Virus record (IMG/VR): IMGVR_UViG_3300026473_000783
From: a virus
Taxonomy: Duplodnaviria; Heunggongvirae; Uroviricota; Caudoviricetes
Reading direction: 5' to 3' (one strand)
Length of the DNA stretch: 64,000 bases
Below are positions 2,436-60,613 of this stretch, one piece after another (the first letter of the stretch is position 1; each line of letters begins with the position of its first letter). Made by a program: the position numbers and the translations under genes. The notes under the pieces were generated by a model. That model was not told where the DNA came from, did no database searches, and worked only from the letters and a program-made list of their open reading frames with translations.

Positions 2436-2455
2436 ATTTTCTCCTATTATAGAGA

Positions 2456-3074: not shown

Positions 3075-3302
3075 ATGGCTTTACTAGGGTCAGCGATTTT
3101 TTCAATCATATTAGGTCTTTTTATTCTTTGGATTTATTTTCTACCAACCTTTATAGCGAGTAAAAGAAATAATCACTTCTCTTCAGTTCTTTTAATCAAT
3201 TTATTTTTTGGTTGGTCTTTAGTTGGTTGGATTATTGCTTTAGCGATTGCTCTTTCTTCTCCAAAAATTATAGTTGTTGAAAAAAACGAGGATAGATCTT
3301 AA
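3075..3302 (+). CDS. superinfection-immunity (Imm)-like small membrane protein
   Basis: YFLPTFIASKRNNHFSSVLLINLFFGWSLVGWIIALAIAL resembles the phage Imm family motif (FLPsiiA..R...NlllGW..GW); two TM segments. Confidence 0.5.
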   Translation: MALLGSAIFSIILGLFILWIYFLPTFIASKRNNHFSSVLLINLFFGWSLVGWIIALAIALSSPKIIVVEKNEDRS

Positions 3303-5191: not shown

Positions 5192-5398
5192 CTAATACCT
5201 TGATATATGTATTGCATTTGGATTAGTTTTTGAAACTTCTTCATGAGGGCCAAAGAAATCACTTTTGTTTGTGTTGAAAGCGACTCGAATCGGTTCAATT
5301 GAAGCGATTTCGTCTAAACCACCCTCATAACCATCTAACAAAATTGGGAAATCTTCAGGAAATGTGGATAATTTTTTTATCAATTCTTTTACGGTCAT
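5192..5398 (-). CDS. hypothetical small protein (paralog of 31264..31476)
   Basis: MTVKELIKKLSTFPEDFPILLDGYEGGLDE... shared with 31264..31476; track start probably over-extended. Confidence 0.4.
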   Translation of the reverse strand: MTVKELIKKLSTFPEDFPILLDGYEGGLDEIASIEPIRVAFNTNKSDFFGPHEEVSKTNPNAIHISRY

Positions 5399-5437
5399 GG
5401 TAGATCCTTTGTTGTAAACGCGCAAAGCCTAAATCTC

Positions 5438-6037: not shown

Positions 6038-6177
6038 GTAGCAAACAAAAGGCCAACTTCTAAATGTCTTATATTGGATTTGGCCCTCTTAAATGTCAAA
6101 AGGTTAGTCATTTATTTTCTAACCTATTGATTTTATTAGGTGTCAAACTTTTAAGCGATGAATCAAGGATTGACACT
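6038..6177 (-). promoter_or_regulatory. sigma-54 promoter cassette
   Basis: TTGGCCTTTTGTTTGCT; UAS 6126-6177. Confidence 0.6.
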
Positions 6178-8672: not shown

Positions 8673-9461
8673 ATGAATAATCTAAAAATAAATCAAGAAG
8701 CTATATTTGAAAAAATCTACAAAATAGAGAGAAATGGTGAACTTCAAATCGTTATGTTAGATAAAGATTTAGCTGATTTTTACCAAACAGATACTCGTAA
8801 GATAAATCAATCAGTCAAAAGAAATCCTTTAAAATTTGCTGATCAAACATTTAAACTCACAAAAGAAGAGTGGCTCTCTATTTTAAAAGCAAGAAATGAA
8901 AATGAGGAAGATCCAATTGAATTTAAAGGTGGACATTTACCTTCAGTTTTTACAGAAGAAGGCGCTTTAGCGTTATCGACAGTGTTGGAATCTCCAGTTG
9001 CTATTCAAGTTTTTAAAGTGTTGCTAAAATCATTTTTTGCGATGAGAACTCTTCTAAAGGAAAGACCAGATCTCCAACTTCATCAAGAGGTTTGGGAATT
9101 AAAGAATAGAGTTATTGAAGTTGAGAAAAAAATTGGTGAAAACTCAAATCAAAACGTGGTTATTCATCAATTGACAAATAATGGAACTTTTCAACTTGGA
9201 TCAAACAACTCAATGGTTGTTAAAATCAATGACTTTGAAGATGTTGTTCAATTTATGACAGAACTTAGACGTCATCCTGGTATAAAGGATAATCTTGAAT
9301 CTAAAGAAGCGATTGATAAATCGATTCAATTAGCTCTAAAAGCGGATAAAAAAGGATTGTTGGAACAAATGAGTTCAGTCATATCAATCACCAATAACAT
9401 TGCTGATTTAGCAGTTAAAGCTTCTCCTGTGATTTTATCCATTTTATCTTGGCTTAAATAA
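8673..9461 (+). CDS. ORF6N-domain-like protein (phage antirepressor-associated N-domain)
   Basis: VMLDKDLADFYQTDTRKINQSVKRNPLKFADQTFKLTKEE resembles the ORF6N core. Confidence 0.45.
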   Translation: MNNLKINQEAIFEKIYKIERNGELQIVMLDKDLADFYQTDTRKINQSVKRNPLKFADQTFKLTKEEWLSILKARNENEEDPIEFKGGHLPSVFTEEGALALSTVLESPVAIQVFKVLLKSFFAMRTLLKERPDLQLHQEVWELKNRVIEVEKKIGENSNQNVVIHQLTNNGTFQLGSNNSMVVKINDFEDVVQFMTELRRHPGIKDNLESKEAIDKSIQLALKADKKGLLEQMSSVISITNNIADLAVKASPVILSILSWLK

Positions 9462-10806
9462 AACCTTGCTGTTTTAGAGCTTTTTTTAATTTTTTTATAG
9501 ATAAACCATACTTTCCTAAAGGAGAAGTTATATAAGTTTTGAAATATTTGTTCCCATAAACTTTTTTAGCTTCTTTTTCATATTTAAAAATCTGCTTCTT
9601 ATTACGATCACAATTCTGCTTCTTTTTGTCTGATTTTGTTTCTACAATGATTTTCATTCCTTTTTTATTAGTGCAAACAAAGTCTGGCTTACATTCTTTT
9701 GATAGATTAGGTTCGTATTCAAATTTTAAATCTATTTCTTTAAATAATTTTTTATATTTTGGGTGAACCACCTTTTTTTCGTGAAGATCAAGTTCTGTGT
9801 TAAAAGGATTAGAGCCTTTTAATAAAGATTGAATTGAAATAGTTGTTGTTTTTTTTGTATAAAATTCTTCAATCAATACAATCCAATCCCTTGAATCCTT
9901 AGATTTTGAGACAATTCGTTTAAATCTAAATTTGGGTGAAGATTTTTTTCCAATTTGGTTTACCCTAATTTCATTTTCTTTTATAGAATAAGATTTTTTC
10001 CAAGGGTTATGGCCACGCAAAAGAGAAGCGTGAGGTTTGACTGCCGTTTTTTTCGTTTCAATGTTTTGAATTTTGACTTCGATTTTGTTTAAATTATTTT
10101 TACCTATATATTTTAAGAATTTATATTGAGGATTTGATTTTCGACCTTGTCTATTGGTTGTATTTTTAATTTGCTTTAATGAGTATTTGACTTTCCAAGG
10201 ATTTGTTCCTCTTAATAAAGAAGATAGTCTTGAAAGTTCTGTTTCTCCAGTTTCGTCAAGCTTAACTTCAATTAATCGGTCAGTCCCAGATTTGATTCCT
10301 GAATCTCTTACAAAAGAATAAGAAGGCTTTGCGCTCTTCCCTGCGGCGTTTATTTTTAATTTAATTTCTTCTAAAGTGTAAGCGTTTCCCCAAGGGTTAG
10401 ATCCGTTCATTAAATTTGATAATTGAGCTGTCGCTTTTTGTCCATATTGATTTTTAATTTCAATAATTCGAATGGATTTAGCAGTTCCAACTTTGATTCC
10501 AGTATCTCGAACAAATATATATTTTGGGGTAGATTTTGCCCCAACTGCGTTAACTTTTTGCCTTAGAATTTCTTCACTATAAGGAACGCCTCTTCCTGAA
10601 AAAGGGTTTACGCCTCCCATGATATGTCGAAACAAGCGAATTGCTGTTTTATTGGAATTAATCATTTGAATTTTTACTAACTTTTCATTTTTTGAATTAC
10701 GACCAGCAAGCGAGTGAAATTTAAATTTAGGTTCTCGGATCTTTCCTTTAAGATTGACAGCGTTTTTAAGTTCTTTGTCAGAATATCTAATTCTTTTTGT
10801 ATTCAT
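9454..10806 (-). CDS. repeat protein with C-terminal PD-(D/E)xK nuclease-like domain
   Basis: About 8 copies of ~45-aa module IxxxGKKSxPxYxF...IEVK...LSxLLxGxNPW; C-term KPDFVCTNKKGMKIIVETK (D...E.K); paralogs 17384..18715, 55753..56652. Confidence 0.5.
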   Translation of the reverse strand: MNTKRIRYSDKELKNAVNLKGKIREPKFKFHSLAGRNSKNEKLVKIQMINSNKTAIRLFRHIMGGVNPFSGRGVPYSEEILRQKVNAVGAKSTPKYIFVRDTGIKVGTAKSIRIIEIKNQYGQKATAQLSNLMNGSNPWGNAYTLEEIKLKINAAGKSAKPSYSFVRDSGIKSGTDRLIEVKLDETGETELSRLSSLLRGTNPWKVKYSLKQIKNTTNRQGRKSNPQYKFLKYIGKNNLNKIEVKIQNIETKKTAVKPHASLLRGHNPWKKSYSIKENEIRVNQIGKKSSPKFRFKRIVSKSKDSRDWIVLIEEFYTKKTTTISIQSLLKGSNPFNTELDLHEKKVVHPKYKKLFKEIDLKFEYEPNLSKECKPDFVCTNKKGMKIIVETKSDKKKQNCDRNKKQIFKYEKEAKKVYGNKYFKTYITSPLGKYGLSIKKLKKALKQQGFI

Positions 10807-11672: not shown

Positions 11673-12521
11673 TTAAAAACCACTCAATGCCTGTTTTAGT
11701 GTTTTTGCTTTTTCGTCGTGTTTGATATTTCTATAATGATTTTTAGGGTCAATCCATAATTGTCCAGTCAAAATATCATAATCAAATGCGTTCACTTCTA
11801 ACTCAACAACTGTCTTTTTTAAGCCTGCGGATAAAATTGAAGTCAAACTTCCTGCGCCATTGTAGTTGCCCAATTTAATTCCCTTATAAGAGGAAAGGCC
11901 ACTACAGCCTGGGTGAAAATCCCAAAGATTTCCATGGCAAACTAAACTTGATCCATCAAAAATAATAGCGGATTCGTGCTCACTACAATCGACACGATAG
12001 ATAACGTCTTCTCTAATTTTAGATTTTAAAATGTTTTTGACAACGTATTGGTTAGTTTTTTCACAAGCTTCTTCAACAATTTTCTCAAGATTTGATTTTT
12101 TCAAAAGATTGAGGTGTTCCACAGAAGGCTCTATCATTTCAATTCTAACATTAAGAAAATCAGAATCTTTTTTTTGAAGATAAATAGATTTTAATTCTTC
12201 AGTGAAATCACCATAAGTTAAGGATCTCACCACAGAGAAAGGAACTTCGGCGTGGTCTTTTTCGTCAACAACAACTCTTACTAAGTCATTATCACAGAAA
12301 ATTTTAGGATTTGATCTCATTAAAAAACTTCCTACATTTTCTGAATTTAATTGAGTAAAAAGGCAAGGGTTGGAATCTGTGATTGAATTATTAAAAATGG
12401 AACCTGTCCAAACACAACTATCGAACTGTAATTTTTTATTCATTTCTTCTAATCTAAAATTCAAATTTTTTAGGACTTCTTTTGAAGAAAATTTCATTTC
12501 TAACCTCTTTGTTGTTTTCAT
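11673..12521 (-). CDS. hypothetical protein, 280-aa family
   Basis: Paralog of 36159..36983 (shared VIYR..SE.....FDG..LV..G). Confidence 0.45.
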   Translation of the reverse strand: MKTTKRLEMKFSSKEVLKNLNFRLEEMNKKLQFDSCVWTGSIFNNSITDSNPCLFTQLNSENVGSFLMRSNPKIFCDNDLVRVVVDEKDHAEVPFSVVRSLTYGDFTEELKSIYLQKKDSDFLNVRIEMIEPSVEHLNLLKKSNLEKIVEEACEKTNQYVVKNILKSKIREDVIYRVDCSEHESAIIFDGSSLVCHGNLWDFHPGCSGLSSYKGIKLGNYNGAGSLTSILSAGLKKTVVELEVNAFDYDILTGQLWIDPKNHYRNIKHDEKAKTLKQALSGF

Positions 12522-17174: not shown

Positions 17175-17310
17175 GTAGCAATTTAAATGCCAAATCCAAA
17201 GTTTATATATTGGATATAAAAGTGTTTGGATGTCAATAAAATGGTCAATTTAGCTTTAACCACTTGATTTTATTAGGTGTCAAACTTATAGGCGATGTTT
17301 AAAAGATTTT
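17175..17310 (-). promoter_or_regulatory. sigma-54 promoter cassette
   Basis: TTGGCATTTAAATTGCT; UAS 17263-17310. Confidence 0.6.
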
Positions 17311-17383: not shown

Positions 17384-18715
17384 TTACTTGTTTTTAATTA
17401 TTTTTTTTAGTTGTTTTTCTAATTCTTTAATGGATATAAACCCATATTTTTGATGACGCCCTTCTGGGTCTGAAAAGTATATTTTTTCAATGTTATATTT
17501 TTTATTTTTAGATAATTCTATATATCTTTTTTTTTGTTTAATAGAATATTTGTGAAACTTATTAGATTGTTTAACTTCTATTACAATGTTTTTATTCATT
17601 TTTGGATGCTTAATCATGAAATCTATAATGTTTTTGTTATTAAATTTAAAAGGAATTTTTTGAAAACCTAATTTTGTAAATAATTTTTTATAAATTGGAT
17701 GGATTTTTTGAATTTCTTCTCTGTTTTGATTTGTATTGAATGGATTAAATTTAAATTTTGTCAAGTGCCTATATGTGGTTTCGTAAGTTTTTTGAGTTTT
17801 TTTATTTTTAACAATAACGTATCTTGTTCCATGTTGATTTTTTCTACTATTTGGATTTACACAAATAAATTGAGGATTTGCTTTTTTTCCGATTTTATTT
17901 ATTTCATTTCTAACCTGGTCGTCATTTTTCATGTGACTTATGTTTTTTGTTTTTAATAAAGAATAAAAATTAAATAGTTTATTGATTTTTCCATTTTTTG
18001 TTTTAACCTCTACTAATACAAACAATCGTCTATTTTCTCGAAAGTGTTTTTTATATTTGATTTTAGTGTTCTTACCTGTTTTGAGATCTTGGACTATTTT
18101 TTTAATTGTTTTTTTAGTATATTTAAATGGGTTTTTAAATTTATCATTAAGAATTGTCTCTTTTTTTGTTATCTTCTTTTCGTTAGAATAGGGGTCTTTT
18201 ATTAAAACATAATCATGTTCGTTTTTATAGTTTTTATATAAAGAGCAAAAAACTACATTGTTTTTTTGACAAAGAGATTTTAATTTTGTATTTTCTAATT
18301 CTTGTTCATATCTTGGAAAGCAAACCTTTTTGCTTTTGAGAAGGCGAGCGACAAATGCCGTTATTTCTTCATTGTTGATAGCATTTGTAATTCTTACTTT
18401 TAGATTTTTTCCTCTTATTATTGATTTTTTTTGATTAACGAAAAATGGGGGGTTGTGTTTTTTTCCAATTTTAGAAACTTCCAATATAATTTCACAATCA
18501 CTTTTTCTGTTGAAAGGATTTTTATTTTGAGACAAATTCGACAATTTTGACTCTTTTATTTCGCCTGTTTTAATCGATTTAACAACACAAACCCTTTGGT
18601 AAGATTTTTTTTTGTTTATTATTGGAAAAAAAGACTTAATATAATAGAATGAAGGATTGGAGTTCTTTCCAATTTTATTTACCATAGATTTTATTGTCTC
18701 TTCTTTATGCCGCAT
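17384..18715 (-). CDS. repeat protein with C-terminal PD-(D/E)xK nuclease-like domain
   Basis: Same module family as 9454..10806; IIDF...IVIEVK; start reassigned to Met 18715 because sigma-28-like motif 18723-18750 lies inside track ORF. Confidence 0.5.
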   Translation of the reverse strand: MRHKEETIKSMVNKIGKNSNPSFYYIKSFFPIINKKKSYQRVCVVKSIKTGEIKESKLSNLSQNKNPFNRKSDCEIILEVSKIGKKHNPPFFVNQKKSIIRGKNLKVRITNAINNEEITAFVARLLKSKKVCFPRYEQELENTKLKSLCQKNNVVFCSLYKNYKNEHDYVLIKDPYSNEKKITKKETILNDKFKNPFKYTKKTIKKIVQDLKTGKNTKIKYKKHFRENRRLFVLVEVKTKNGKINKLFNFYSLLKTKNISHMKNDDQVRNEINKIGKKANPQFICVNPNSRKNQHGTRYVIVKNKKTQKTYETTYRHLTKFKFNPFNTNQNREEIQKIHPIYKKLFTKLGFQKIPFKFNNKNIIDFMIKHPKMNKNIVIEVKQSNKFHKYSIKQKKRYIELSKNKKYNIEKIYFSDPEGRHQKYGFISIKELEKQLKKIIKNK

Positions 18716-18722
18716 AATTAAC

Positions 18723-18750
18723 TTATCGGTTGTTTTATCTAAAAACTTTA
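18723..18750 (-). promoter_or_regulatory. sigma-28-type promoter candidate
   Basis: TAAAGTTT-N11/12-ACCGATAA. Confidence 0.45.
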
Positions 18751-18752
18751 AT

Positions 18753-19166
18753 TTATCTTTTATCAAAATGATAAAGAGCTTCTTGAGCTGCTTGTTTTAC
18801 AATTTTGGGATTATAAGGCAGATTTTGAGTGTTTGTGTAGTGTTTGGCTAAAGAGTGCTTATCCCAATGGCCACTAACACTTTTCATAAATTCAGGTAAA
18901 GTTTTTGAAATTTCTTCTCTAATCTCAGAAATTGTCTCTTGAGAAAAGCTTACAAATACAAAAGTGTTTCCTCCAGATAAGATCTCGCCTGTTGATTCAC
19001 ATCTTTGATAAAATTCATATTTTTCTTTTAAAAGTGTATCAATTTTTTCATAATCTAATTTTGGATCTAACAATTTAACATTGATTGAAGATTTGGTTGT
19101 GATTCTAACATGTTTTGTGTCGATTCCATTTTCTTTAAGGTAAGATTTAATTTGATTCGCTTTCAT
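18753..19166 (-). CDS. hypothetical protein (137 aa)
   Basis: ORF with sigma-54 cassette (CTGGCCTCTTGATTGCA). Confidence 0.45.
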   Translation of the reverse strand: MKANQIKSYLKENGIDTKHVRITTKSSINVKLLDPKLDYEKIDTLLKEKYEFYQRCESTGEILSGGNTFVFVSFSQETISEIREEISKTLPEFMKSVSGHWDKHSLAKHYTNTQNLPYNPKIVKQAAQEALYHFDKR

Positions 19167-21433: not shown

Positions 21434-21570
21434 GGTGCAATTCCAATACCAGCATTAAGTCGCTTATGTTTGATTTAATAGAGGCTCGTGTCAAAACAAA
21501 TGACAAACATCCACTAAGATATTGATTTTATTTGGTGTCAAACTTTTAGGCGATGATTAAAGGATTGACA
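21434..21570 (-). promoter_or_regulatory. sigma-54 promoter cassette
   Basis: CTGGTATTGGAATTGCA; UAS 21522-21570 with perfect TGTCAAAC-N20-TTGACA; ATG 15 nt from -12. Confidence 0.55.
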
Positions 21571-21964
21571 TTAGTTTTTGCTTTTTTTTGAGATTTGAGA
21601 GAGTTGTTTTAAAATCTGGATTTGGAACAATCTTAACCCCTCGATAGAAATCTTCATTAATTTCTAAGGCTTCTAAACAAAAATCAACAGATTGGGTTTT
21701 CATGAGGGAAAGAAGATCATTTCCTCTATCACCATAAAGCTCTTTAATAGCTTCTAAAACTACTATATAATTTGGATTATTCATAAATGCCAAAACAGAA
21801 TAATCACTATGTATGAAGCGAAATTGTTCATGAGGCTCTAAGCTATTTAGGACTTCTACATAAGAGTCAAATTCTTCTTGATTACAGCGACTATCCTTAA
21901 CCCAATTTTGAAACCATCCACTGTATTCGTTAAGAGCGTTCAATAGCTCAGTTTGTTCTTTCAT
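21557..21964 (-). CDS. family-B DUF4116-like repeat protein
   Basis: ...DFCLEALEINEDFYRGVKIVPNPDFKTTLSNLKKKQKLMSIL. Confidence 0.5.
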   Translation of the reverse strand: MKEQTELLNALNEYSGWFQNWVKDSRCNQEEFDSYVEVLNSLEPHEQFRFIHSDYSVLAFMNNPNYIVVLEAIKELYGDRGNDLLSLMKTQSVDFCLEALEINEDFYRGVKIVPNPDFKTTLSNLKKKQKLMSIL

Positions 21965-25711: not shown

Positions 25712-26545
25712 TTATTTTGATTCACTCATTTTCAACAAGTCTTGTCTAACCTTATTTAAATGATCCTCAGATTGAGGCACTCCAGAGACATTTAATTTTA
25801 AGAAGTATTCCATTTTATCTTTTAAAGTCCAACTCTCATCGCCACGTCCCAATGTTATATTATAATTTAAAAAATGATTTTTATCTTTTTGAGAGAGTTG
25901 AGAAAACGTTTTACCTCTATATGAGAATTGATCTTCATAGTATTGGATTAAAGTGGTTAGTCTTTGTTTTCCATCTAAAATTTCAAAGCCTGGGCTGTTT
26001 TCTTTATAGGGAAGCTCGACCATTACGAATTTTCCAATTTCTACCGCGTTAAAAATGCTTTCTATCAATTTTTCTTTATCTTTTAAATCCCAACAAAGCT
26101 CTCTTTGATAAGAGGGGTTGTAGTCAATTCCAAAAGAGTAATGATAGCTAAATAAAGAATCAATTGAAGCGTTGTGAAAGGAGATTTGTCTTTTTGAACT
26201 TAAATGATTAGAAAAATCTGAAGATTCTTCAAAATTTTCAGGTAAAGCTTCTAAGTGGTGAATGTAGCGGATTGTTTTTTCATTATTTTTTGAATAAATT
26301 TCACACTTTAAAATACGGCCTTCATCAATGACCTCTAAAACAATCATAAAGTCCCAATGAGCAGTCCTTGGTTTTATTTTATCTCCAACTTTAAATTGAA
26401 ATTGAGGAGTTGTCATTGGATATTGTTTTAATTTTAATAATTCAGAATTTAACAAAGATTCAAGTCTCTTCTCTTCTTGCAATGCTTTATTTTTTTCTCT
26501 TGATTGACTTCTTTTAAGCTTGGCTTCCTCTGTCATTTTTCTCAT
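25712..26545 (-). CDS. DUF262 (ParB-like nuclease domain) protein
   Basis: FEILDGKQRLTTL = DUF262 DGQQR motif; no DUF1524/HNH partner seen. Confidence 0.5.
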   Translation of the reverse strand: MRKMTEEAKLKRSQSREKNKALQEEKRLESLLNSELLKLKQYPMTTPQFQFKVGDKIKPRTAHWDFMIVLEVIDEGRILKCEIYSKNNEKTIRYIHHLEALPENFEESSDFSNHLSSKRQISFHNASIDSLFSYHYSFGIDYNPSYQRELCWDLKDKEKLIESIFNAVEIGKFVMVELPYKENSPGFEILDGKQRLTTLIQYYEDQFSYRGKTFSQLSQKDKNHFLNYNITLGRGDESWTLKDKMEYFLKLNVSGVPQSEDHLNKVRQDLLKMSESK

Positions 26546-30190: not shown

Positions 30191-30401
30191 CTTTCTAAAT
30201 TTTGATTTATTTCTACAAATTGTAAAAATTATCTTATATTTGTTTTGTTCAATTATATGGAACATATGTACATGATTTTAGAACAGTAAAAAACCCATAA
30301 TTTAAATGACGGATACCGCTCATTAGATAATAGGCTCAAGAATCACAATTTTGGCTGTTCAGAAATTATTAGAAGTTGTTAATGGGTTGTTTGTTTTAAG
30401 A

Positions 30402-30444
30402 AAACTCCGGATTTTGGATAATTCTATAAATCCGGAGTTTTTCT
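30402..30444. terminator. bidirectional intrinsic terminator candidate
   Basis: 12-bp stem AACTCCGGATTT/AAATCCGGAGTT with T-runs on both strands. Confidence 0.4.
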
Positions 30445-30743
30445 ATAAAATTTAAACTTTAGCTTTTTTATTTCCATTAAATGTTAATTTAAAGATACAA
30501 AATGTGCATGAAAGAGTTTTAGTTCCAAATGTTGGTGAGTATTTAGTTGAAGGAAAAATTGAGTCAGTTTTACCAGCAAGATTATATATTTACAAAGGTC
30601 TTGACGATAATAAAAAATTAGTTGGTCATTATAATTGTTTTTCTAAATCTAAAAACTTTAACTATTGCTTAGAATTGTTTAAAAAAGAAGTAAAAGATTT
30701 AAAAGTTCCAGAAAATGAGTTTGACAAATTGATTAACTAATAA

Positions 30744-31115
30744 TTATTTTAATATATCTAAAATAGCCTTTTTTTTCTCTAAATTATAAACGGTAGTTTC
30801 AAAGTCTGGATTTGGAACTATTCTTACTAAACGATAAGTGTCTGGGTGTTGGACTAATGCTAAAGAGCATAAATCAACGGTTTGTTCTTTTATGTGCTCT
30901 AATGTCCATGGATTTATCTTAATTGCTAGCTCACAAAGTTCTTTTTTTTGATCATTTATGTATTGAATTGATGAAGGGGTTGTTTTTATTGATCGTTTAC
31001 ATAAAGAATCAGAAGGATTCGTTAGCACTGATAGAATCGAAGAATCGATCTTAATATATCTAAAAATATCTTTATCATTTAGATCGAATGGACAGAATTG
31101 ATCCATCTTGTTCAA
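30744..31115 (-). CDS. family-B DUF4116-like repeat protein
   Basis: ...VRIVPNPDFETTVYNLEKKKAILDILK. Confidence 0.55.
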   Translation of the reverse strand: MNKMDQFCPFDLNDKDIFRYIKIDSSILSVLTNPSDSLCKRSIKTTPSSIQYINDQKKELCELAIKINPWTLEHIKEQTVDLCSLALVQHPDTYRLVRIVPNPDFETTVYNLEKKKAILDILK

Positions 31116-31263
31116 GATATGAGATTAGATCTTCTTCACTGATTTGCTTTAACCATTTTGTGAAAAACCCATCTCTTCTTTTGTACAAAAATCCATTTTA
31201 TACCAAGCCTGAAATCTGATATCTTTTCTTGCTAGATAGATTTCAAATTTTGATTTAATTTCA

Positions 31264-31476
31264 CTATTTTTCATATCTAGATATTTTAACAGCGTTAGGT
31301 CTTTTTTTAGAAACTTCTTCGTGTGGTCCAAGCCAATTTTTATCGTTAACATTAAATTCAACTTGAACTTTTTCGATATGTCCTACCTCATCTAGTCCAC
31401 CCTCATAGCCATCGACAAGAACGGGAAGGTCTTGAGGAAATGTAGATAAGTGTTTCATTAACTCTTTTACAGTCAT
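31264..31476 (-). CDS. hypothetical small protein (paralog of 5192..5398)
   Basis: MTVKELMKHLSTFPQDLPVLVDGYEGGLDE. Confidence 0.4.
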   Translation of the reverse strand: MTVKELMKHLSTFPQDLPVLVDGYEGGLDEVGHIEKVQVEFNVNDKNWLGPHEEVSKKRPNAVKISRYEK

Positions 31477-31490: not shown

Positions 31491-31925
31491 TTATATTTTG
31501 TTAATTTCAAAAAATAATTTGTTAGATTGTTTAGATGAACAAATCAGTTGAAGATTAGAATGTATTTTTTCTTTTCCACCGATACGAAAAAAATAACCAT
31601 TTTTTAAAAAGTTTAATAATTTTTCTTGTAAATCAGGTGCGAGTTGATTAGATTCGTATAGAAGTAAAATTCCACCATTTGCCACTTCGATTAGTCCAAT
31701 TTTTTTATGATAAGCATTTTTAAAAGAACCTTTCTCATGACCAAAGATTTCAGATTCTAACAAAATACCAGATAAAGCCGAACAATTGATCATAATAAGA
31801 GGTTTGTCTTTTCGATCACTTCTTTGATGAAAATCACGACAGAACTCTTCTGCTTCATTAAGTGATTCTTTTAAGATAAGTATTGGTTTTGGTATTTTCA
31901 TAGAGATAGTATCGGAATTTTTCAT
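31491..31925 (-). CDS. truncated, degenerate sigma-54 activator (bEBP AAA+) fragment
   Basis: INCSALSGILLESEIFGHEKGSFKNA....GLIEVANGGILLLYESNQLAPDLQEKLLNFLKNGYFFRIGGKEKIH aligns to bEBP NCAAIPE.LLESELFGHEKGAFTGA...GGTLFLDEI..L....Q.KLLRVL....F.R.GG; Walker A replaced (KESLNEAE), GAFTGA->GSFKNA, Walker B DE->YE; only 144 aa. Confidence 0.5.
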   Translation of the reverse strand: MKNSDTISMKIPKPILILKESLNEAEEFCRDFHQRSDRKDKPLIMINCSALSGILLESEIFGHEKGSFKNAYHKKIGLIEVANGGILLLYESNQLAPDLQEKLLNFLKNGYFFRIGGKEKIHSNLQLICSSKQSNKLFFEINKI

Positions 31926-32000
31926 ATAAACTTTAATTTATAAGTGTATGATTTTAATACGTTTTATTTAAAAAATGGTTGAATGCGACAAATTGAAGTC

Positions 32001-32468
32001 TTATTTCAAAGCTTCTAAAAGAGCTTTCTTCTCTTTTAAATTTTTAAGAGTTGTTTCATGGTCTGGATTTGAGACTATTCTTACATGTTGATATGTATAT
32101 GGATTTTTTTCTAAAGCTAAAAGACATAAATCAACGGTTTGTTCTTTAATGTAGTGAATTGATCTTGGAAAATTCTTAATAGATAACTCACATATTTCTT
32201 TTGTTTGATCTTTTATAAATTCTATTGAAAAAGGATCATTTTGAATTGCGATCTTGCACATATGAACTGTTTGATTTTTGATAGCTAATAGAATTGTTCC
32301 ATCTTTTTTAAGATAAGAACAGATTTCTTCTTCACTGAGTTGGTTTAACCATTTGTTGAATCTTTTAATTTCTTTTATAGTACAAACTTTCAATCCTAAC
32401 CAATTTTTAAAGTAGTTAGTTTTTTTCATATTTCTTTCAAAAACCTTCTTGATTTGATCATTTGTCAT
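32001..32468 (-). CDS. family-B DUF4116-like repeat protein
   Basis: Internal Met MTNDQIKKVFE matches family N-terminus; ...VRIVSNPDHETTLKNLKEKKALLEALK. Confidence 0.55.
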   Translation of the reverse strand: MTNDQIKKVFERNMKKTNYFKNWLGLKVCTIKEIKRFNKWLNQLSEEEICSYLKKDGTILLAIKNQTVHMCKIAIQNDPFSIEFIKDQTKEICELSIKNFPRSIHYIKEQTVDLCLLALEKNPYTYQHVRIVSNPDHETTLKNLKEKKALLEALK

Positions 32469-32469
32469 T

Positions 32470-32922
32470 TTACCAAGAATCACTTGAGCCACCTCCCGAA
32501 GAATCGCCGCCCCCTCCATCATAAGAAGAATCACTACTTGAGCTAGAAGAAGAATTATCTGAAGTCCAGTAAGAATCGTCTGAAGACATTATCGAGTTTG
32601 AAGGATTCGAAGAATTTTCTTCTTTTTTTTGAATAGATTGTTTTTTATATTTAATTTTCTTTTTTAAAGAGCTTAAATGTAGTTCTAATTTGTTTTTTTG
32701 GATTTTAAGTTTATTTATTTGATCCGTAGAATTAGAATTTTTCTCTTTTTTTATTAAAAGATTTTCAATTCTTTTCTCTAATGTTTCTGCTTGAGTCATT
32801 TCTGTTTTTATTTCTAAAATTTGTTTTAAACACTCTTCATAAATTTTTTTTGTCTTTTCTAATTTTGAGTTAATAATAAAATAAATCACTAAAGCTATAA
32901 TCGCAAATATAAATAAAAACAT
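32470..32922 (-). CDS. TM + coiled-coil protein with Gly/Ser-rich C-terminal tail
   Basis: ...SSSSSSSDSSYDGGGGDSSGGGSSDSW; abuts 32924..33724 with a 1-nt gap. Confidence 0.4.
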   Translation of the reverse strand: MFLFIFAIIALVIYFIINSKLEKTKKIYEECLKQILEIKTEMTQAETLEKRIENLLIKKEKNSNSTDQINKLKIQKNKLELHLSSLKKKIKYKKQSIQKKEENSSNPSNSIMSSDDSYWTSDNSSSSSSSDSSYDGGGGDSSGGGSSDSW

Positions 32923-34841: not shown

Positions 34842-34980
34842 TTTAGCAAATAATAGGCCAACCCTAAATCGAATATATTCTCTTTAAAGGACTTAACTGT
34901 TAAAGATTTAAACAGATATCTTCTAAGCTATTGATTAGACAGCTGTTAAACTTTTAATCGATGAATAAAGAATTAACAGC
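34842..34980 (-). promoter_or_regulatory. sigma-54 promoter cassette
   Basis: TTGGCCTATTATTTGCT; UAS variant TGTTAAAC...TTAACAG at 34930-34980. Confidence 0.55.
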
Positions 34981-36004: not shown

Positions 36005-36146
36005 GAAGCAAGAATGAGGCCAGTGTAAGATTGGTTTATATTTGATTTAATAGATGTGATGTCAATTTTTTAGACTATGAATTGAGTTAAATACTTGATT
36101 TTATTAGGTGTCAAACTTTTAGTGAGTGTTTAAAGGTTTGACACGT
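36005..36146 (-). promoter_or_regulatory. sigma-54 promoter cassette
   Basis: CTGGCCTCATTCTTGCT; UAS 36094-36146. Confidence 0.6.
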
Positions 36147-36158: not shown

Positions 36159-36983
36159 TTAAGCACATTTTTGACTATTTTTTCGTCTCCATAGTTCTTC
36201 TAGGAATGTTTTTGATTTTTTTTCTTTTTTTTCTTTAAAATTGTAAAGACCATTAACCATAAATTCAAAATCTTTTTTTGAAACTTCTAAGTTAACAATT
36301 TTCTTTTTAAATTTCATCGATAGTATTCTAGCCATGTCGCATGAGCAGATACAGTTGTATTTTTCTAAATTTATATTTTTATGTAGAGAAAGTCTATTCG
36401 AATCGGCACGTTGAAATTCTTCGTATTCTCCAGCCATAACTAAATTTGGTCCATCAAAAACTGCTGCGATAGCTTCTTCACTATTGAAAATTCTATAAAT
36501 AACATTTTCTTTAACTTTTTCTTTTAAAATTCTTTCCACCTCTTTGTTAGCTAATTGGCAGTATTCTTTGACTATGTTTTTTAATTGATTTTTAAATTTT
36601 TTAGAGTTTTCTTTTGTTTTTCTTTGAATTAAAAATTTAATGACTCGATTATTTTCTTTAACCAATTCTGAATGAGCTAGATCAAAAAAATCTTTATTTA
36701 GCATTTTTGATAGGTCTTCACCAGATACTTCTTTTTGATTATGGCTTAAAATGAATTTATCTTCTTTGTGGAAGAAATATGGATTTGTTTCGTCTATAAA
36801 TTGAAAAAGATTTTCAGGAGTTAAATCGAAATAGGCTTGTGGGTCACCTGGGTAATAGTCTTTGTCAGTCAGCGGCTTGTTTAAAATTGTAGTTTTACTA
36901 AGCCTTTTTTCAAAATCATATTTTAATGATTCGTTAAATTTTTTATTTAATTGCTTTAAAATTTTTGATTCGACATATTTCAT
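36159..36983 (-). CDS. hypothetical protein, 280-aa family
   Basis: Paralog of 11673..12521; track start is TTG, Met 36983 preferred. Confidence 0.45.
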   Translation of the reverse strand: MKYVESKILKQLNKKFNESLKYDFEKRLSKTTILNKPLTDKDYYPGDPQAYFDLTPENLFQFIDETNPYFFHKEDKFILSHNQKEVSGEDLSKMLNKDFFDLAHSELVKENNRVIKFLIQRKTKENSKKFKNQLKNIVKEYCQLANKEVERILKEKVKENVIYRIFNSEEAIAAVFDGPNLVMAGEYEEFQRADSNRLSLHKNINLEKYNCICSCDMARILSMKFKKKIVNLEVSKKDFEFMVNGLYNFKEKKEKKSKTFLEELWRRKNSQKCA

Positions 36984-37186
36984 TTCTTTATAATAAGATA
37001 AAAGACCAATAAAGTCAAACAAAATGTGAATTAAGCGATAATTGTAAATTTTTTCTTATATTTAATTTGTTTGAATTTTAATTACTCTTTACTTTATCAT
37101 AGAAGAAAAAGCAAAACTATCAACTTTTTAATATATATTATATGAAATCTGGAGATTAAATAATAGTAAAATCCTTTAAGTATTTG

Positions 37187-39455: not shown

Positions 39456-39592
39456 GTAGCAATCTTTAGGCCAATCTTTAAATGAATCTATTCGATTTAA
39501 TAGATAGGATTGTTTAAAGATTTGATAGAAACTTTTTAAGTTATTGATTTTATTAGGTGTCAAAGGTTTGTGCGGTGTTTAAAAGATGTTTA
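39456..39592 (-). promoter_or_regulatory. sigma-54 promoter cassette
   Basis: TTGGCCTAAAGATTGCT; UAS 39543-39592; drives two small-peptide genes. Confidence 0.6.
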
Positions 39593-40000
39593 CATAAAAT
39601 AGTCTAAAATAGCTTTTTTTTCTTTAAGATTTTCAAGAGTAATCTCATAGTTAGTATTTCGGACGATCCGAATATATGGATATATATGTTGATTTTTTTC
39701 TAAAGCGATAAGACACAAATCAACCGTTTGCTCTTTTATGTATTGAATGCAATATGATGATATTTCAACGCTTTTTTTACATAAATTATTTGATTGGGTT
39801 GAGATTAAAGAAAGCACTGAATTATCTATTTCTATGTACTTTAAAACTTTTTCTTCACTTAATGAATTAAAATAATTTTTAAAAAGATAAAATTCTTCTT
39901 TTGTACAAAAATTATATTCAGGCCATAAATCAATAGATTGCCAAAAATGGTTTTCTTGAACTTTTTTTAAGAATAATTCTTTAATTTTTTGATTTGTCAT
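39590..40000 (-). CDS. family-B DUF4116-like repeat protein
   Basis: MTNQKIKELF...IRIVRNTNYEITLENLKEKKAILDYFM. Confidence 0.5.
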   Translation of the reverse strand: MTNQKIKELFLKKVQENHFWQSIDLWPEYNFCTKEEFYLFKNYFNSLSEEKVLKYIEIDNSVLSLISTQSNNLCKKSVEISSYCIQYIKEQTVDLCLIALEKNQHIYPYIRIVRNTNYEITLENLKEKKAILDYFM

Positions 40001-40431
40001 TTAAAAGCCTCTAAAACAGCCTTTTTTTCTAATAAATTCTGTATAGTTTTTTCATGATCTGGATTTGGGACTATTCTAACGAAATTGTGGCAATAATTAT
40101 CAACTTCTAAAGATTTAAGACATAAATCAACTGTTTGAGATCTAATATGCACAAGATTGTAAGGGTTGCATTTTATAGCAAATTCACATAATTCTTTGGT
40201 TTGATCTGTTATAGCAGAAAAAATTGAGCTATCTTTTTCTATATATTTTAAAATCTCTTTTTCGCTTAGTTGATTAAGCCAAATAATAAAATCCTCCATT
40301 TCTTCTGGATCACAAATACCGTTAAAAACCCAATCTTCGAAGCAAATAAGGTCATGCGTTAAATTTTCTTTAAATTTTTCTTTAACTTCAATTCTGTTTA
40401 AAAATCTTTTGTAAGGTTTTAAATTTTTCAT
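39997..40431 (-). CDS. family-B DUF4116-like repeat protein
   Basis: ...VRIVPNPDHEKTIQNLLEKKAVLEAFK; 4-nt overlap with next gene. Confidence 0.5.
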   Translation of the reverse strand: MKNLKPYKRFLNRIEVKEKFKENLTHDLICFEDWVFNGICDPEEMEDFIIWLNQLSEKEILKYIEKDSSIFSAITDQTKELCEFAIKCNPYNLVHIRSQTVDLCLKSLEVDNYCHNFVRIVPNPDHEKTIQNLLEKKAVLEAFK

Positions 40432-40439
40432 TTTATCCT

Positions 40440-40859
40440 TTATTTTAAAGCGTTTAAAAGTTCTTTTTTCTTTTTTAGATTTAAAAGAGTTGTCTTAAAA
40501 TCAGGATTTGGGACAATTCTTACATGTTTGTGAATATGAACCTCGTATGAAAATTTATCTAAAGCCGTTAAGCAAATGTCAACAGATTGCTGGTTTTGAT
40601 TAATAAATTCTAAAAGTTCAGGATAAGAATCTAATATAAAAAGAATTGATTCTTCACTTAAGTCTTTTGCGATTATTTTAAAAGATTGTTGAAAGTCTTT
40701 ATCGTATCGAAGGTAAGTTTTTAAATTTTTTTGAGAAAAAATCAATATGTTTTCATTTTTTGTATTTATATAATCTTTTAAAAGCAAGATTTGTTTTTTT
40801 CTTGTAGTAAAAATTACAAACAAAATATATGTTAAAAATCCAAAAAAAACAAAATACAC
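40440..40859 (-). CDS. family-B-like protein with N-terminal TM
   Basis: ...VRIVPNPDFKTTLLNLKKKKELLNALK. Confidence 0.45.
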   Translation of the reverse strand: MYFVFFGFLTYILFVIFTTRKKQILLLKDYINTKNENILIFSQKNLKTYLRYDKDFQQSFKIIAKDLSEESILFILDSYPELLEFINQNQQSVDICLTALDKFSYEVHIHKHVRIVPNPDFKTTLLNLKKKKELLNALK

Positions 40860-48168: not shown

Positions 48169-50085
48169 ATAAAAGATTCAAAGAATTTTATTGTTTTTCT
48201 TTGTATTTGAAATTTTAATAAGACCTCTTCCAACTTTATAAATAACAAGTGCGGCATTATGATCTGCGTCCATTCTGTAATTACAACTGGTACAGATAAA
48301 TTTTTTGTCTTTTCGACTATCTTGATCCGTCTTCCCACAACAGCTACAAGTTTGAGAAGTGAACTTAGGGTCAACTTTTTTAACATTTTTTGAGTACTCA
48401 TTTAATTTTTGAGCAAAATAACCCCAGTTTTTAGAAAGAATAGATCTGTTTAAACCAGTTTTTTGAGAAACTTTCTTTCCAGGATTGTCAACATTGCCTT
48501 TAGCTGTTTTTGTCATATTTGATATTTTTAAATCTTCAATATAGATATCTTCACTTTTTTTCGCAATTAAAGTGGCTTCTTTTTTTAGAAAATTTTCTTT
48601 TTGTCTTTTAAGTTTTAATTGAAGCTTTGAGATTTTTCTAATTTCTTTTTTAAAATTTTTAGAGTCTCTATCTTTTTTTCTTCTATACAACATAGATTTC
48701 TTTTTTGGAATTATTTTTTCTAAATTTAAAATATATTCTGGAAAATCAATGCTTTTATATTTGACCTGATTTGGGTTTTTATTTGACACAATCGCAATAG
48801 CGGTTTTTGTTGAAATACCTCGGTCAATTCCAACTGAGCTTTTTTTGACAACTTCTTTTTTTACAGTTTTTTCTTGAATAGAAAAAATTACAAACCACTC
48901 ACTTCCCTCTTTTTTAAACTGAACAGTTCTTACATTTTCAACTAGAAAAGGTTTAAAGCATTTAAATTTCAAATATCCAAGGTCAAATTTTTCTTTTATA
49001 TCTTCATAATTTTTAGAAATACAAAAATAAGCATATGAAGAATTTGAATTTTCTTCAAAAGTCGTGTTCCATAAATTTTTAAACGCATTTTTAAAACCAA
49101 TAAATCCACTGTCTCTCTCACTTTTATAGCGAGGAATTCCAGCTTTTTTCGGGTCTTTTTTTAAATTTCTAAAAAATTGTTTATAAGAATCCTCACTTTT
49201 ATCAAATACATTATTAAAAAAGCTTGAACAAAACGGAAGAATTTTGTTTTTACGATTCTTTTTCATTTGAGTAAATTCTTTTTGTAGAACAGCTTTTGAA
49301 AAATTTTCATTTTTAAATGAACTTTGGAAATGATAAGGAATCTTGATTGAAAATACTTTTTTGTCTTTTTTCGATAAGTTCAGCTCTTTTCCAATGTTTG
49401 AATTAAGCCTGTTTTCAAAATTAAAGAAAACAACTGTTAAAAAACTTCTTAATTTATTCCGTTCCTTTAACTCTTCTTCTTTTTCGCTATCTTTTAGTTT
49501 TTTAAATTTATCAAAACTTGCTGAAATCAACTCATTTAATTCTTTAATTCTACGATCCGAAATTTTGATCGATTGTCTTTCCGCGATTTTTATTATTTGT
49601 TTCGCATCGAAAATATCTATTTTGTCTTTTTTCTCAATTTTATTAAAATTATAAAAATCTTGAGATTCTATTTGTTTTTCAACAATCGCATTCCATAAAT
49701 CTTTAGAAGCATTTTCCATTTTTTCTAAAATTGATCTCTGTTTTTCATTTAAATATAGTTTATATTTATAGTTTTTTATAGTCGTTTCCATATATTCATT
49801 TAAACACATTTTTCAATAAAAATAAAGAATTAAGACTTTGAACCTAAAAAAATATGTATTTTTCTAAGTAATTGATTTTATTGAGTTATTTTTTTTCTTG
49901 ACAAAATAGGGAAGAAGTGGTTAAATAAGTTCATGACCCCACTTTAATGGGGAAAACTCTAAAAAATTAGAGTTTAAGCTTCTGGAGAGACCATATATTG
50001 GTTTTGATGAGAGAAGAACCTTTTAACGAAGGATTTCGGAGATAATCTCTGATTGGTTCAATGATATATTGCGACCAAAAAGGAG
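47988..50085 (-). mobile_element. candidate TnpB-only IS200/IS605-like (IS1341-type) element, or tnpB inserted between inverted promoter-leader repeats
   Basis: tnpB bracketed by inverted ~200-bp repeats; no tnpA; the right-end/omega-RNA-like structured sequence sits directly after the tnpB stop. Confidence 0.45.
48178..49809 (-). CDS. tnpB: TnpB-family RNA-guided endonuclease homolog (IS200/IS605 OrfB / Cas12-like), 543 aa, catalytic motifs intact
   Basis: N-term NYKYKLYLNEKQRSILEKM...LWNAIVEK (TnpB HTH pattern); RuvC-I VGIDRGI; RuvC-II IYIEDLKISNM; zinc finger CSCCG...CTSCNYRM; RuvC-III DADHNAALVI; ~140 aa longer than typical TnpB. Confidence 0.75.
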   Translation of the reverse strand: MCLNEYMETTIKNYKYKLYLNEKQRSILEKMENASKDLWNAIVEKQIESQDFYNFNKIEKKDKIDIFDAKQIIKIAERQSIKISDRRIKELNELISASFDKFKKLKDSEKEEELKERNKLRSFLTVVFFNFENRLNSNIGKELNLSKKDKKVFSIKIPYHFQSSFKNENFSKAVLQKEFTQMKKNRKNKILPFCSSFFNNVFDKSEDSYKQFFRNLKKDPKKAGIPRYKSERDSGFIGFKNAFKNLWNTTFEENSNSSYAYFCISKNYEDIKEKFDLGYLKFKCFKPFLVENVRTVQFKKEGSEWFVIFSIQEKTVKKEVVKKSSVGIDRGISTKTAIAIVSNKNPNQVKYKSIDFPEYILNLEKIIPKKKSMLYRRKKDRDSKNFKKEIRKISKLQLKLKRQKENFLKKEATLIAKKSEDIYIEDLKISNMTKTAKGNVDNPGKKVSQKTGLNRSILSKNWGYFAQKLNEYSKNVKKVDPKFTSQTCSCCGKTDQDSRKDKKFICTSCNYRMDADHNAALVIYKVGRGLIKISNTKKNNKIL

Positions 50086-50147
50086 ACAAGTATTTAAAAT
50101 AGTTGTTTTTTTAAATAAAAAAATGTAAAATAAAGATATGAAAAAAA
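49865..50147 (+). repeat. structured repeat copy C (inverted relative to A) plus 65-bp leader running into nuclease gene
   Basis: Begins with truncated UAS (taagtaattgattttattgag), then TTGACA 49898-49903 -N17- TTAAAT 49921-49926, then structured region, then leader identical to the one upstream of 47371..47844. Confidence 0.6.
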
Positions 50148-50998
50148 TTATTTATTTAATCGTACTTATCGCCCCTCTTTGTTATGGATATTCATTTAAA
50201 AAATTATTTAAAGAAGTTGAAAAATCTTTTCACCAAGATCATAAAACAACTTCCCATAAAGTCAACAAAGGTCAAATTCAAATTCCAAACGAACCATTCA
50301 CCAAGGCTGAAGCTCCCCAATCTGTTAGTTATGGAGAATCTTTTGGTCGATGTGACGTTTTTTTTCCTAAAAAAAGAGCCCCTGCTATTGATTCAAGACT
50401 AACCTCTAAATCAAGATCAATCTGCTCAACTAAATTTGCGGTCCTTTATTCAACTGATTACAAATCTCCTATTTATACGATTGAAAAACTTTCTTATTTA
50501 AATTTTGTATCTAAAAAAGTGGAAAGATCAAACAAGTTTAAAGAAGATTATAGATTGAAAGATTCTGAAAAATCAACACTTGATGACTATAAAGAAGTCT
50601 CTTTTCAATTCGATAGAGGCCACAATGTGCCTTCTGGAGATTTTGTTGGAGGGTCTGAATTTGAAAATGAAGAAACCTTCTACCTTTCCAATATGTCAGC
50701 CCAAGACGCAACTCTGAATAGAGGTATTTGGGCCAAATCTGTAGAAAAAGCGGTTAGAAGCTATGTTCAAAGATCTTCTGGTGATATTTATGTATTTACA
50801 GGTGGCTATTATGGAAAAAATCCGGTTAGATTTGGCAAAAGTAAAGTGGCTATACCAAATTATTTCTGGAAATTGGTTTATGACGATTATACTAAAAAGT
50901 CATGGGTTTATTGGATTGAAAATAATTCAACAGATAAGCTTAAAGTTTTGTCTTATCAAGAATTTGTCGATAAAACTCAACTTAAGCTTTTAGATTAA
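50138..50998 (+). CDS. secreted DNA/RNA non-specific endonuclease (Serratia-nuclease/NucA family)
   Basis: Signal peptide; DRGHNVPSGDF and FYLSNMSAQDATLNRGIWAKSVE match the DRGH...N...N.G.W..E active-site signature. Confidence 0.65.
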   Translation: MKKIIYLIVLIAPLCYGYSFKKLFKEVEKSFHQDHKTTSHKVNKGQIQIPNEPFTKAEAPQSVSYGESFGRCDVFFPKKRAPAIDSRLTSKSRSICSTKFAVLYSTDYKSPIYTIEKLSYLNFVSKKVERSNKFKEDYRLKDSEKSTLDDYKEVSFQFDRGHNVPSGDFVGGSEFENEETFYLSNMSAQDATLNRGIWAKSVEKAVRSYVQRSSGDIYVFTGGYYGKNPVRFGKSKVAIPNYFWKLVYDDYTKKSWVYWIENNSTDKLKVLSYQEFVDKTQLKLLD

Positions 50999-55752: not shown

Positions 55753-56652
55753 CTATTTTAAGATTTTATCTTCTAATTCTTTAATAGATAGAGATCCCTT
55801 GTGAATTCCTCTGGGGTCTGATAAAATTATTTTTGATAACCTGTATTGGTTAAGTTTTGATATTTTTCTATATGTAGAGATTTGATTGTTTCTCATATAA
55901 AGCTTTTCTGATTGCTTCACTTCAATTCCAATTTTTTTCGTATTTGGAAAAATAACAAAATCTATTCTTTTTCGGCCAAGTTTGAATTCTTTAATGTATG
56001 GAATTTTTAGTTTTTTAAATAGATTTTCATAAATAGGATGTATTTTGTTAAGTTCAATTCTATTTTGAATTTTGGAAAATGGATTTTGACCTTTCATTAA
56101 ATGATCAAATCGACTAAATTTAACCGATCCGTTTTCACAACAAATCTTAACAAATCTTCTATTTTTAATAAATTGAGTACTTATAAATTTAAATTTTGGA
56201 TTAGCTAGTTTTCCTAATTTATTTATTTTTTCTATAACTTCTTTTTTTGATAGTTTATTTTGAATAAAAGGATTTTTTCTATTTTTTATGTTATCAAAAA
56301 AGGCTTCAATTGTTTTTCCAGTTGTGGCATTTTTAATCTTTATTAAGATTTTAGATTTTTCATTTCGTCTCATTGATACGTAAGAAAATTGAGGAATTGA
56401 TTGTTTTCCAATTTCTTCAACTATTTTTTTAGCTTTAAAATCTTGAATTCTTGAGAAAAGATTTTTATTTTTTGAGATCTTTGAAAAATTTATAGAAATA
56501 ATTTGTTCTGTTTTTAAATTTTGGATTTTAACCAAAATTTGGCCATATTTTCCTCTTTTTGAAGATATGAAAATAAACCTATCTAAAGCTTTTGCTCCAA
56601 TTTGGTTGGTTTTTTTCTTAATTTCCTCATTGCTTAATTTTCTCAAAAACAA
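55753..56652 (-). CDS. repeat protein with C-terminal PD-(D/E)xK nuclease-like domain (299 aa)
   Basis: RIDFVIFPNTKKIGIEVK; same module family as 9454..10806. Confidence 0.5.
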   Translation of the reverse strand: MFLRKLSNEEIKKKTNQIGAKALDRFIFISSKRGKYGQILVKIQNLKTEQIISINFSKISKNKNLFSRIQDFKAKKIVEEIGKQSIPQFSYVSMRRNEKSKILIKIKNATTGKTIEAFFDNIKNRKNPFIQNKLSKKEVIEKINKLGKLANPKFKFISTQFIKNRRFVKICCENGSVKFSRFDHLMKGQNPFSKIQNRIELNKIHPIYENLFKKLKIPYIKEFKLGRKRIDFVIFPNTKKIGIEVKQSEKLYMRNNQISTYRKISKLNQYRLSKIILSDPRGIHKGSLSIKELEDKILK

Positions 56653-60142: not shown

Positions 60143-60613
60143 TTATTTAAAAGCTTCTAATATCTCTTTTTTGTTTAATAGATTCTTAATGGTCGTTTTA
60201 TAGTTTGGATTTGGCACTATTCTAACATATTTATAACAACCTTTATCTAGTTTTAAAGCTAAAAGACATATTTCAACGGTTTGTTCTTCTACAAACTGAA
60301 TAGATCCACTCCACTTTTCAATTGCTAGTTTACACAATTCTTTCGTTTGATTTTTTACAAACATTAAACACCAAGGTTCTTGTTTAATAGAGAATTCACA
60401 AATTTTATTTATCTGATTGTTTATTACAGATAAAATTGTTGGATCTAATTTTAAATAATCACAAATTTCTTCTTCATTTAATTGATTTAGCCAATTAACA
60501 AAAGTTTTATGCTCTTTTTTTGAGCAAATTTGTAGATTTGACCAGTCTTTAAAATGCCAAGCTTGATTTCTTAAATTTTCTTCAAATAAAGATTTAATTT
60601 CTTTATTTGTCAT
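60143..60613 (-). CDS. family-B DUF4116-like repeat protein
   Basis: ...VRIVPNPNYKTTIKNLLNKKEILEAFK. Confidence 0.55.
   Translation of the reverse strand: MTNKEIKSLFEENLRNQAWHFKDWSNLQICSKKEHKTFVNWLNQLNEEEICDYLKLDPTILSVINNQINKICEFSIKQEPWCLMFVKNQTKELCKLAIEKWSGSIQFVEEQTVEICLLALKLDKGCYKYVRIVPNPNYKTTIKNLLNKKEILEAFK

Follow-up and report, generated by a model that had tools for sequence, protein, structure and literature searches.

Most sigma-54 activators of the bEBP family carry a C-terminal HTH domain, and only a few do without one. FleT from Rhodobacter sphaeroides, a bEBP with neither an N-terminal domain nor an HTH, hetero-oligomerizes with FleQ (PMC10084136; PMC7277832). RedR1 and RedR2 from Aromatoleum anaerobium form hetero-oligomers through their central domains, and these complexes work only when neither partner is in an inactive form (PMC10084136). 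Other bEBP homologues, namely VpsR, TyrR-type proteins, Caulobacter NtrC, and PexR, are reported to have no sigma-54 function (PMC6158489; bioRxiv 10.1101/2023.06.06.543975; PMC12754779). Their AAA+ domains are devoid of the GAFTGA motif and/or of ATPase residues, and the proteins keep the whole AAA+ fold together with a DNA-binding domain and serve as DNA-bound regulators.

Here we analyzed an open reading frame (ORF) of 144 aa at 31491..31925 on the minus strand of a 64,000-nucleotide stretch of viral DNA, referred to below as the window. The ORF encodes a truncated, motif-dead AAA+ fragment of a sigma-54 activator. Like the AAA+ domains of canonical bEBPs (PF00158; NtrC1, PspF, NifA, FleQ), with which it shares 45-52% identity over ~120 residues without a gap from beta1 to beta4, it has the INC, LLESE(L/I)FGHEKG, GG, KLL, and R(V/I)GG motifs. 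Unlike them, it lacks Walker A, the Walker B Asp, the Thr and Gly of GAFTGA, sensor I, and both arginine fingers, as well as alpha0, beta5, the lid with sensor II, the HTH, and the regulatory domain.

Similar to FleT, the ORF has neither an N-terminal domain nor an HTH and would likewise act only via another bEBP. However, FleT is a co-activator with a complete AAA+ domain, whereas the ORF does not encode such a complete, ATPase-competent domain: its AAA+ domain is incomplete and its ATPase motifs are destroyed. The RedR1/RedR2 pair offers a mechanistic precedent for a dominant-negative role, but those proteins are full-length regulators that switch states, whereas the ORF is a 144-aa fragment with a hypothetical partner. 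Compared with VpsR, TyrR-type proteins, Caulobacter NtrC, and PexR, it has neither the whole fold nor the DNA-binding domain. Here and there, other PF00158 homologues have likewise lost Walker A, GAFTGA, or Walker B, such as the inactive modules of the tandem-domain proteins P0018, P0022, P0032, and P0153 and the similarly short P0040 (196 aa), which reads GETLANKE and STFTDT and has lost the arginine fingers. These are independent lineages, at most 45% identical to the ORF, and none has its substitutions or its boundaries. The ORF is a further case of the known degenerate, non-catalytic bEBP derivatives.

Homology and extent of the ORF

The ORF is an ATG-to-stop frame (stop codon included in the coordinates) on the minus strand, which the earlier note did not give. 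The assignment to the central AAA+ domain of bEBPs made in that note, which a failed profile search was to refute, is confirmed. Pfam PF00158 (Sigma54_activat) matched with E=2.9e-32 and 112 bits, aligning residues 10-134 with positions 20-144 of the 168-position profile. The AAA+ cores of the NCBIfam models for NifA, PspF, NtrC, and RtcR matched with E-values from 1e-30 to 1e-25, albeit far under the full-length cut-offs of all NCBIfam models matched, and the PDB chains of NifA, NtrC1, FleQ, and PspF with E-values from 5e-23 to 3e-20. PADLOC and PHROGs recovered only AAA+ homology for the ORF (RtcR/PspF-type models). Homology to PF00158 is the only defining property of bEBPs that we found in the ORF.

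We aligned the ORF with 122 full domains from an exhaustive HMMER search. The bEBP-derived segment (31494..31886, minus strand) spans residues 14-144, from beta1 to a degenerate arginine-finger helix, and is gapless against the family across residues 14-133. The stop codon lies exactly at the point where strand beta5 would begin, so that the complete AAA+ fold with beta5 and a helical lid carrying sensor II is not encoded; the match ends at position 144 of the 168 in the profile. The regulatory and HTH domains are missing, as the earlier note had stated; alpha0 is absent as well, and tblastn with full-length relatives found no remnants of the lid, HTH, or N-terminal domain in any frame of the flanks. 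An AF2 model showed the expected topology of beta1-alpha1-beta2-alpha2-L1-alpha3-beta3-alpha-L2-beta4, albeit at a pLDDT of 56 from a 5-sequence alignment, which carries no information on stability.

The ORF stands alone among its relatives. A word-indexed search of 5.8 billion clusters returned only the identical sequence, and all other contigs carrying the gene are 100% identical. An exhaustive HMMER search covered 1.84 billion representatives and yielded 96,520 matches, among which a canonical bEBP of 473 aa ranked first with 52% identity, and no relative exceeded this value. Scans of GTDB genomes and JGI metagenomes gave at most 47% identity among the matches listed. In the tree of the 123 domain sequences, the terminal branch of the ORF is the longest (0.348, compared with a mean of 0.151). 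Its base composition, with a GC content of 27.4% and a GC3 of 15.9%, is fully host-like.

Loss of catalytic motifs and its pattern

The three motif losses listed in the earlier note are all found in the alignment. Walker A, which reads GE[ST]GTGKE in the family, is replaced by KESLNEAE (31848..31871, minus strand), with G19, G22, G24, and K25 all substituted at columns that are 98-100% conserved in the 122 relatives. This change requires at least 8 nucleotide changes in 5 codons (15 nt), while the adjacent LLESEIFGHEKGSF is unchanged. The L1 loop, GAFTGA or GSFTGA in the family, became GSFKNA (31713..31730, minus strand), with T->K at a 96%-conserved column and G->N; because GSFTGA occurs in the nearest relatives, only these two substitutions are peculiar to the ORF. 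The acid pair of Walker B is YE instead of DE (31653..31658, minus strand), where the hhhhDE pattern has turned into LLLYE by a D->Y change at a 97%-conserved column.

The alignment also revealed losses beyond those three. Sensor I is SSK in place of ATN (31530..31538, minus strand). The tail KLFFEINKI (31494..31520, minus strand) is a relic of DLYYRLN(V/T)I, in which LYYRLN is still recognizable as LFFEIN and the second arginine finger has changed from R to E, and an 11-residue in-frame deletion just before the tail takes out the first. Thus, neither sensor I nor the trans-acting arginine fingers (FRxDLYYRL) are retained, while INC, LLESE(I/L)FGHEKG, GG, KLL, and R(V/I)GG are kept. The predicted product is unable to bind or hydrolyze ATP, to donate an arginine finger, or to bind DNA, and it probably cannot engage sigma-54.

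The replacements are unevenly distributed. Among columns that are at least 90% conserved, 7 of 13 have changed in the catalytic motifs compared with 5 of 30 elsewhere (Fisher p=0.024), and 5 of the 7 conserved columns in Walker A have changed (hypergeometric p=0.023). The six conserved-column changes outside the set of catalytic positions are mild, with BLOSUM62 scores from -1 to +2. We also simulated decay by AT-biased point mutation of a restored canonical ancestor until 16 of 52 conserved positions had changed, which took ~66 substitutions. Only 2.6% of 1000 runs stayed free of stop codons, and indels would lower this figure further. Neither stop codons nor frameshifts interrupt the 144 codons of the ORF, and its single internal indel is the in-frame deletion.

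Together, a frame that stayed open, a deletion of whole codons, and the concentration of substitutions in catalytic motifs indicate that the dead domain was held by selection for some time. ATPase function was probably lost long before the truncation, while the domain was still under selection as a dead ATPase, and the ancestor of the ORF was probably part of a longer, non-catalytic paralogue. We assume that the truncation itself is recent.

Junctions, flanking genes, and the sigma-54 island

Upstream of the ORF lies a DUF4116 gene (32001..32534, minus strand), separated from it by a 75-nt leader (31926..32000, minus strand). The stretch from 32094 to ~31900, which comprises the 3' end of the DUF4116 gene, the leader, and the first ~9 codons of the ORF, is 81-83% identical to a paralogous copy at 2449..2643 on the minus strand. 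In this copy, the leader is non-coding and continues into AGGAG and the ATG of an unrelated 74-aa gene (2211..2435). Therefore, codons 1-9 of the ORF (MKNSDTISM; 31899..31925, minus strand) are former leader sequence and not bEBP-derived. Both ATGs of the ORF, M1 and M9, are ATA in the paralogous leader.

No Shine-Dalgarno-like motif precedes M1 or M9, whereas the neighboring genes have AGGAG or GAGG. Most ATG-start genes in the window have clear GGAG-type sites, and a loose motif definition places one ahead of 41 of 78 longest ORFs (110 aa or more); some real-looking genes in the window are likewise without. The leader also contains no promoter of its own, as neither a sigma-54 -24/-12 element nor anything passing a sigma-70 consensus scan was found in it.

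Downstream, a gene of 70 aa begins 14 nt past the stop codon of the ORF (31264..31476, minus strand), preceded by a strong Shine-Dalgarno site (AAGGAGAA). Its paralogue at 5192..5425 (minus strand) stands behind a different upstream gene. The two genes of this pair encode 70-77 aa, both with strong Shine-Dalgarno sites, and match PHROG families of unknown function weakly; PADLOC and PHROGs gave nothing else for the neighbors of the ORF. The next DUF4116 paralogue downstream (30744..31361, minus strand) is disrupted by two in-frame stop codons and a frame switch. Its residues 59-82 lie in another frame, so that it is either a broken copy or one gene divided between two ORFs. Thus, compared with all functional members of the family, the ORF is truncated, joined to unrelated sequence, and deprived of translation signals.

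The window has ~29% G+C, and its genes lie almost exclusively on the minus strand. The earlier note had placed the ORF inside a sigma-54-rich island, and the promoter counts bear this out. With at most one mismatch, TGGCAC-N5-TTGC occurs 10 times in the window, always on the minus strand, against an expectation of 0.9, and a looser scan gave 29 minus-strand sites. Moreover, 25 copies of a 24-mer, AAGTTTGACACCTAATAAAATCAA, at up to 3 mismatches lie between 1786 and 55724, exclusively on the minus strand (for example 6127..6150, 17264..17287, and 36095..36118), where none would be expected by chance. In the copies checked, the distance from the start of the 24-mer to a downstream sigma-54-type TGGC-N8-TTGC element is 95-96 nt, and this element is followed after 10-30 nt by a small gene with its Shine-Dalgarno site and ATG. 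The 24-mer makes up one arm of a dyad, which reads GTGTCAAAC...GTTTGACAC at 36108..36144. This dyad is likely a shared candidate enhancer for one HTH-bearing bEBP.

No such enhancer-promoter module belongs to the ORF itself. Going upstream on its strand, the first sigma-54-type promoter (TGGCCTATTATTTGCT) is located at 34845..34860, accompanied by a diverged enhancer dyad at ~34930..34975. A hairpin with a U-tract at 30397..30445 (minus strand), CUCCGGAUUU...AAAUCCGGAG, with a dG of -21 kcal/mol and a z of -5.4, lies between convergent genes; a simple scan missed it owing to its long loop. This candidate terminator likely ends the transcription unit containing the ORF. Since no terminator was predicted between the promoter at 34860 and this hairpin, the ORF could be carried along in the distal part of a ~4.4-kb sigma-54 operon.

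We also looked for a bEBP that could act on these modules. By tblastn with the ORF and eight full-length relatives, no second bEBP or bEBP fragment was found in the 64-kb window, where only the ORF itself was recovered. Nor was a PF00158 activator present in the 10 kb to the right of the window (L082:1-10000, ENA ERZ27251563 contig k141_320286). The earlier note had invoked a hexameric activator for the reiterated cassettes, which is thus absent from both the window and these 10 kb. An ORF at 11673..12521 was dismissed as a bEBP fragment, as its tblastn match (E ~0.4) rests on the short string REDVIYR. It and the ORF at 36159..37022 (minus strand) are paralogous orphans of ~285 aa without a Pfam hit, and their REDVIYR and KENVIYR resemble the arginine-finger helix FREDLYYR, probably by chance. 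In the 10 kb to the right, the island continues with more orphan genes, DUF4116-like repeats, a DUF2201 protein, and a weak Peptidase_M10 match.

The window holds 22 paralogous ORFs with DUF4116 repeats, including the upstream neighbor of the ORF; most are on the minus strand, and many stand in tandem runs and have conserved 3' ends (for example 842..1306, 21557..21964, 39590..40859, and 60143..63401). It also contains a TnpB-like gene, nucleases, a subtilase, a TPM-domain protein, and many orphans. The TnpB/Cas12f-like protein (48178..49809, minus strand; 543 aa, OrfB_IS605 and Cas12f1-like TNB domain) is encoded inside the island, and no adjacent TnpA was noticed. Three large paralogous ORFs lie on the minus strand at 9454..10806, 17384..18766, and 55753..56652, one of which matches the restriction-endonuclease-fold toxin Tox-REase-9 weakly (E=0.0014, under the Pfam cut-off). 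Together with Endonuclease_NS (50138..50998), GmrSD_N (25712..26545), and an Imm_superinfect ORF (3075..3302, plus strand), these hint at a toxin/immunity or conflict island. Neither tRNA genes nor Rfam families were found in the 64 kb, and no PLSDB plasmid matched.

Origin and significance of the fragment

On balance, we consider it probable that the ORF is the relic of an already inactive bEBP paralogue that was cut down by cassette recombination. The homology is real but partial, covering profile positions 20-144 of 168 and missing the NCBIfam full-length cut-offs, and every catalytic element and the sigma-54-contact residues are lost. The mosaic 5' junction, the cassette gene as 3' neighbor, the lack of bEBP remnants in the flanks and of a second bEBP in 64 kb, and the missing Shine-Dalgarno site before M1 and M9 all point in the same direction. 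So do the domain boundaries that cut through the alpha/beta core, the status of the ORF as a singleton and the fastest-evolving of 123 domains, the disrupted adjacent DUF4116 paralogue, and the fully host-like base composition. That the paralogue was inactive before it was truncated is suggested by the clustering of conserved-column changes in catalytic motifs and by the low stop-free fraction of the decay simulation. The case for a relic is weakened by the intact frame of 144 codons at 29% G+C with a sole internal indel in frame, as the same is expected under selection, by the two ATGs that arose where the paralogous leader has ATA, and by the real-looking genes in the window that also lack Shine-Dalgarno sites.

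A relic of this kind could have arisen as follows. A bEBP-family gene would first have become a catalytically inactive paralogue, which recombination in the cassette array would then have trimmed at both ends. What remained is the part of the AAA+ alpha/beta subdomain from beta1 to beta4, including the L1 and L2 loops. The 5' end of this part is joined to a cassette leader that used to be non-coding and supplied an ATG by chance but no Shine-Dalgarno site, and an unrelated cassette gene comes directly after its 3' end. The ORF may be transcribed passively as the distal part of the sigma-54-dependent operon starting near 34860; it is probably poorly translated and would have no function of its own today.

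As explanations, the earlier note had left open a decaying pseudogene and a dominant-negative or poisoning subunit. The part of the first proposal that stands is the relic, favored by the mosaic junctions, the incomplete fold boundaries, the singleton status, the disrupted neighboring paralogue, and the absence of a Shine-Dalgarno site. Simple decay of an active gene is disfavored by the open frame, the in-frame deletion, and the clustering in catalytic motifs. An ordinary young pseudogene, in which a canonical active bEBP gene was truncated and then drifted neutrally, with the motif loss and the open frame both arising by chance, would account for the truncation, the missing Shine-Dalgarno site, the mosaic and decaying neighborhood, and the longest branch of the family. 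However, neutral runs rarely stayed open even before indels are considered, the changes are unevenly spread in both tests, and Walker A was heavily altered next to an untouched LLESEIFGHEKGSF; we regard such a pseudogene as decidedly improbable. An artefact, by chance similarity or by an assembly chimera creating the junctions, might be suspected in a repeat-rich region where short-read assemblies break at DUF4116 repeats, as does a 2.3-kb contig (L001) that ends inside them. Chance similarity is hard to reconcile with the Pfam E-value, and both junctions lie within an independent Logan contig that is 100% identical across 2308 bp, which therefore argues against an assembly artefact; the protein is also present in both the JGI and the ENA assemblies. 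We give an artefact next to no probability.

The alternative that credits the ORF with a present function is a mini pseudo-AAA+ anti-activator or poison subunit, derived from an activator and expressed from a sigma-54 operon of the island, and we consider it unlikely. Because the AAA+ domain is incomplete and every ATPase motif is destroyed, the product, if functional, could only inhibit, and the sole plausible mode would be hetero-oligomerization with a resident bEBP. The conserved surfaces of the alpha/beta subdomain would let it take a place in the hexamer of the cognate bEBP or cap this hexamer. Since both the P-loop and the arginine fingers are missing, ATP hydrolysis would be abolished at each of the two interfaces that it makes, resulting in negative feedback on the ~25 cassette promoters. 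The frame that stayed open, the in-frame 11-residue deletion, and the gapless alignment of residues 14-133 despite the longest branch are consistent with this, as are the rarity of stop-free runs under neutral decay and the concentration of replacements in catalytic motifs while LLESE(I/L)FGHEKG, INC, GG, KLL, and RxGG were kept. The context also fits, with 25 candidate enhancer dyad copies positioned 95-96 nt from sigma-54 promoters where checked and one such promoter upstream of the ORF, from which no predicted terminator separates it. There is precedent as well, since inactive bEBP forms inhibit active partners via central-domain hetero-oligomers, and FleT pairs with FleQ (PMC10084136).

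On the other hand, the N-terminus stems from a non-coding leader without a Shine-Dalgarno site, and the cut inside the alpha/beta subdomain, with no alpha0, beta5, or lid, makes both stability and a complete subunit interface doubtful; the low-confidence AF2 model is weak evidence either way. No orthologue turned up in the clusters, the representatives, or, among the matches listed, the genome and metagenome scans, so that there is no family, and the window and the 10 kb to its right contain no partner bEBP. The selection signal may, moreover, predate the truncation. Quite doubtful in our view is the fuller scenario, in which a self-derived 144-aa pseudo-AAA+ "cap" from one of the island's own sigma-54 operons would poison the hexamer of the single bEBP driving ~25 cassette promoters via the shared enhancer dyad. 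Such a cap would impose island-wide negative feedback, a regulator having been exapted into its own inhibitor by truncation. If an anti-activator of this type were nevertheless real, it would represent a compact, genetically tractable, truncated AAA+ subunit serving as a built-in brake on an enhancer-binding activator.

If the ORF is, as we favor, the relic of an inactive paralogue, the immediate consequence is one of annotation hygiene, as it should not be counted as a sigma-54 activator, and it would mark heavy recombination in the cassette island. The more notable biology lies in the surrounding island, with ~25 near-identical modules of enhancer and sigma-54 promoter driving small orphan genes. 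For the bEBP family, the pattern of change suggests that an AAA+ domain probably persisted under selection after ATP binding had been lost, and the ORF would thereby join a growing list of non-catalytic bEBP derivatives.
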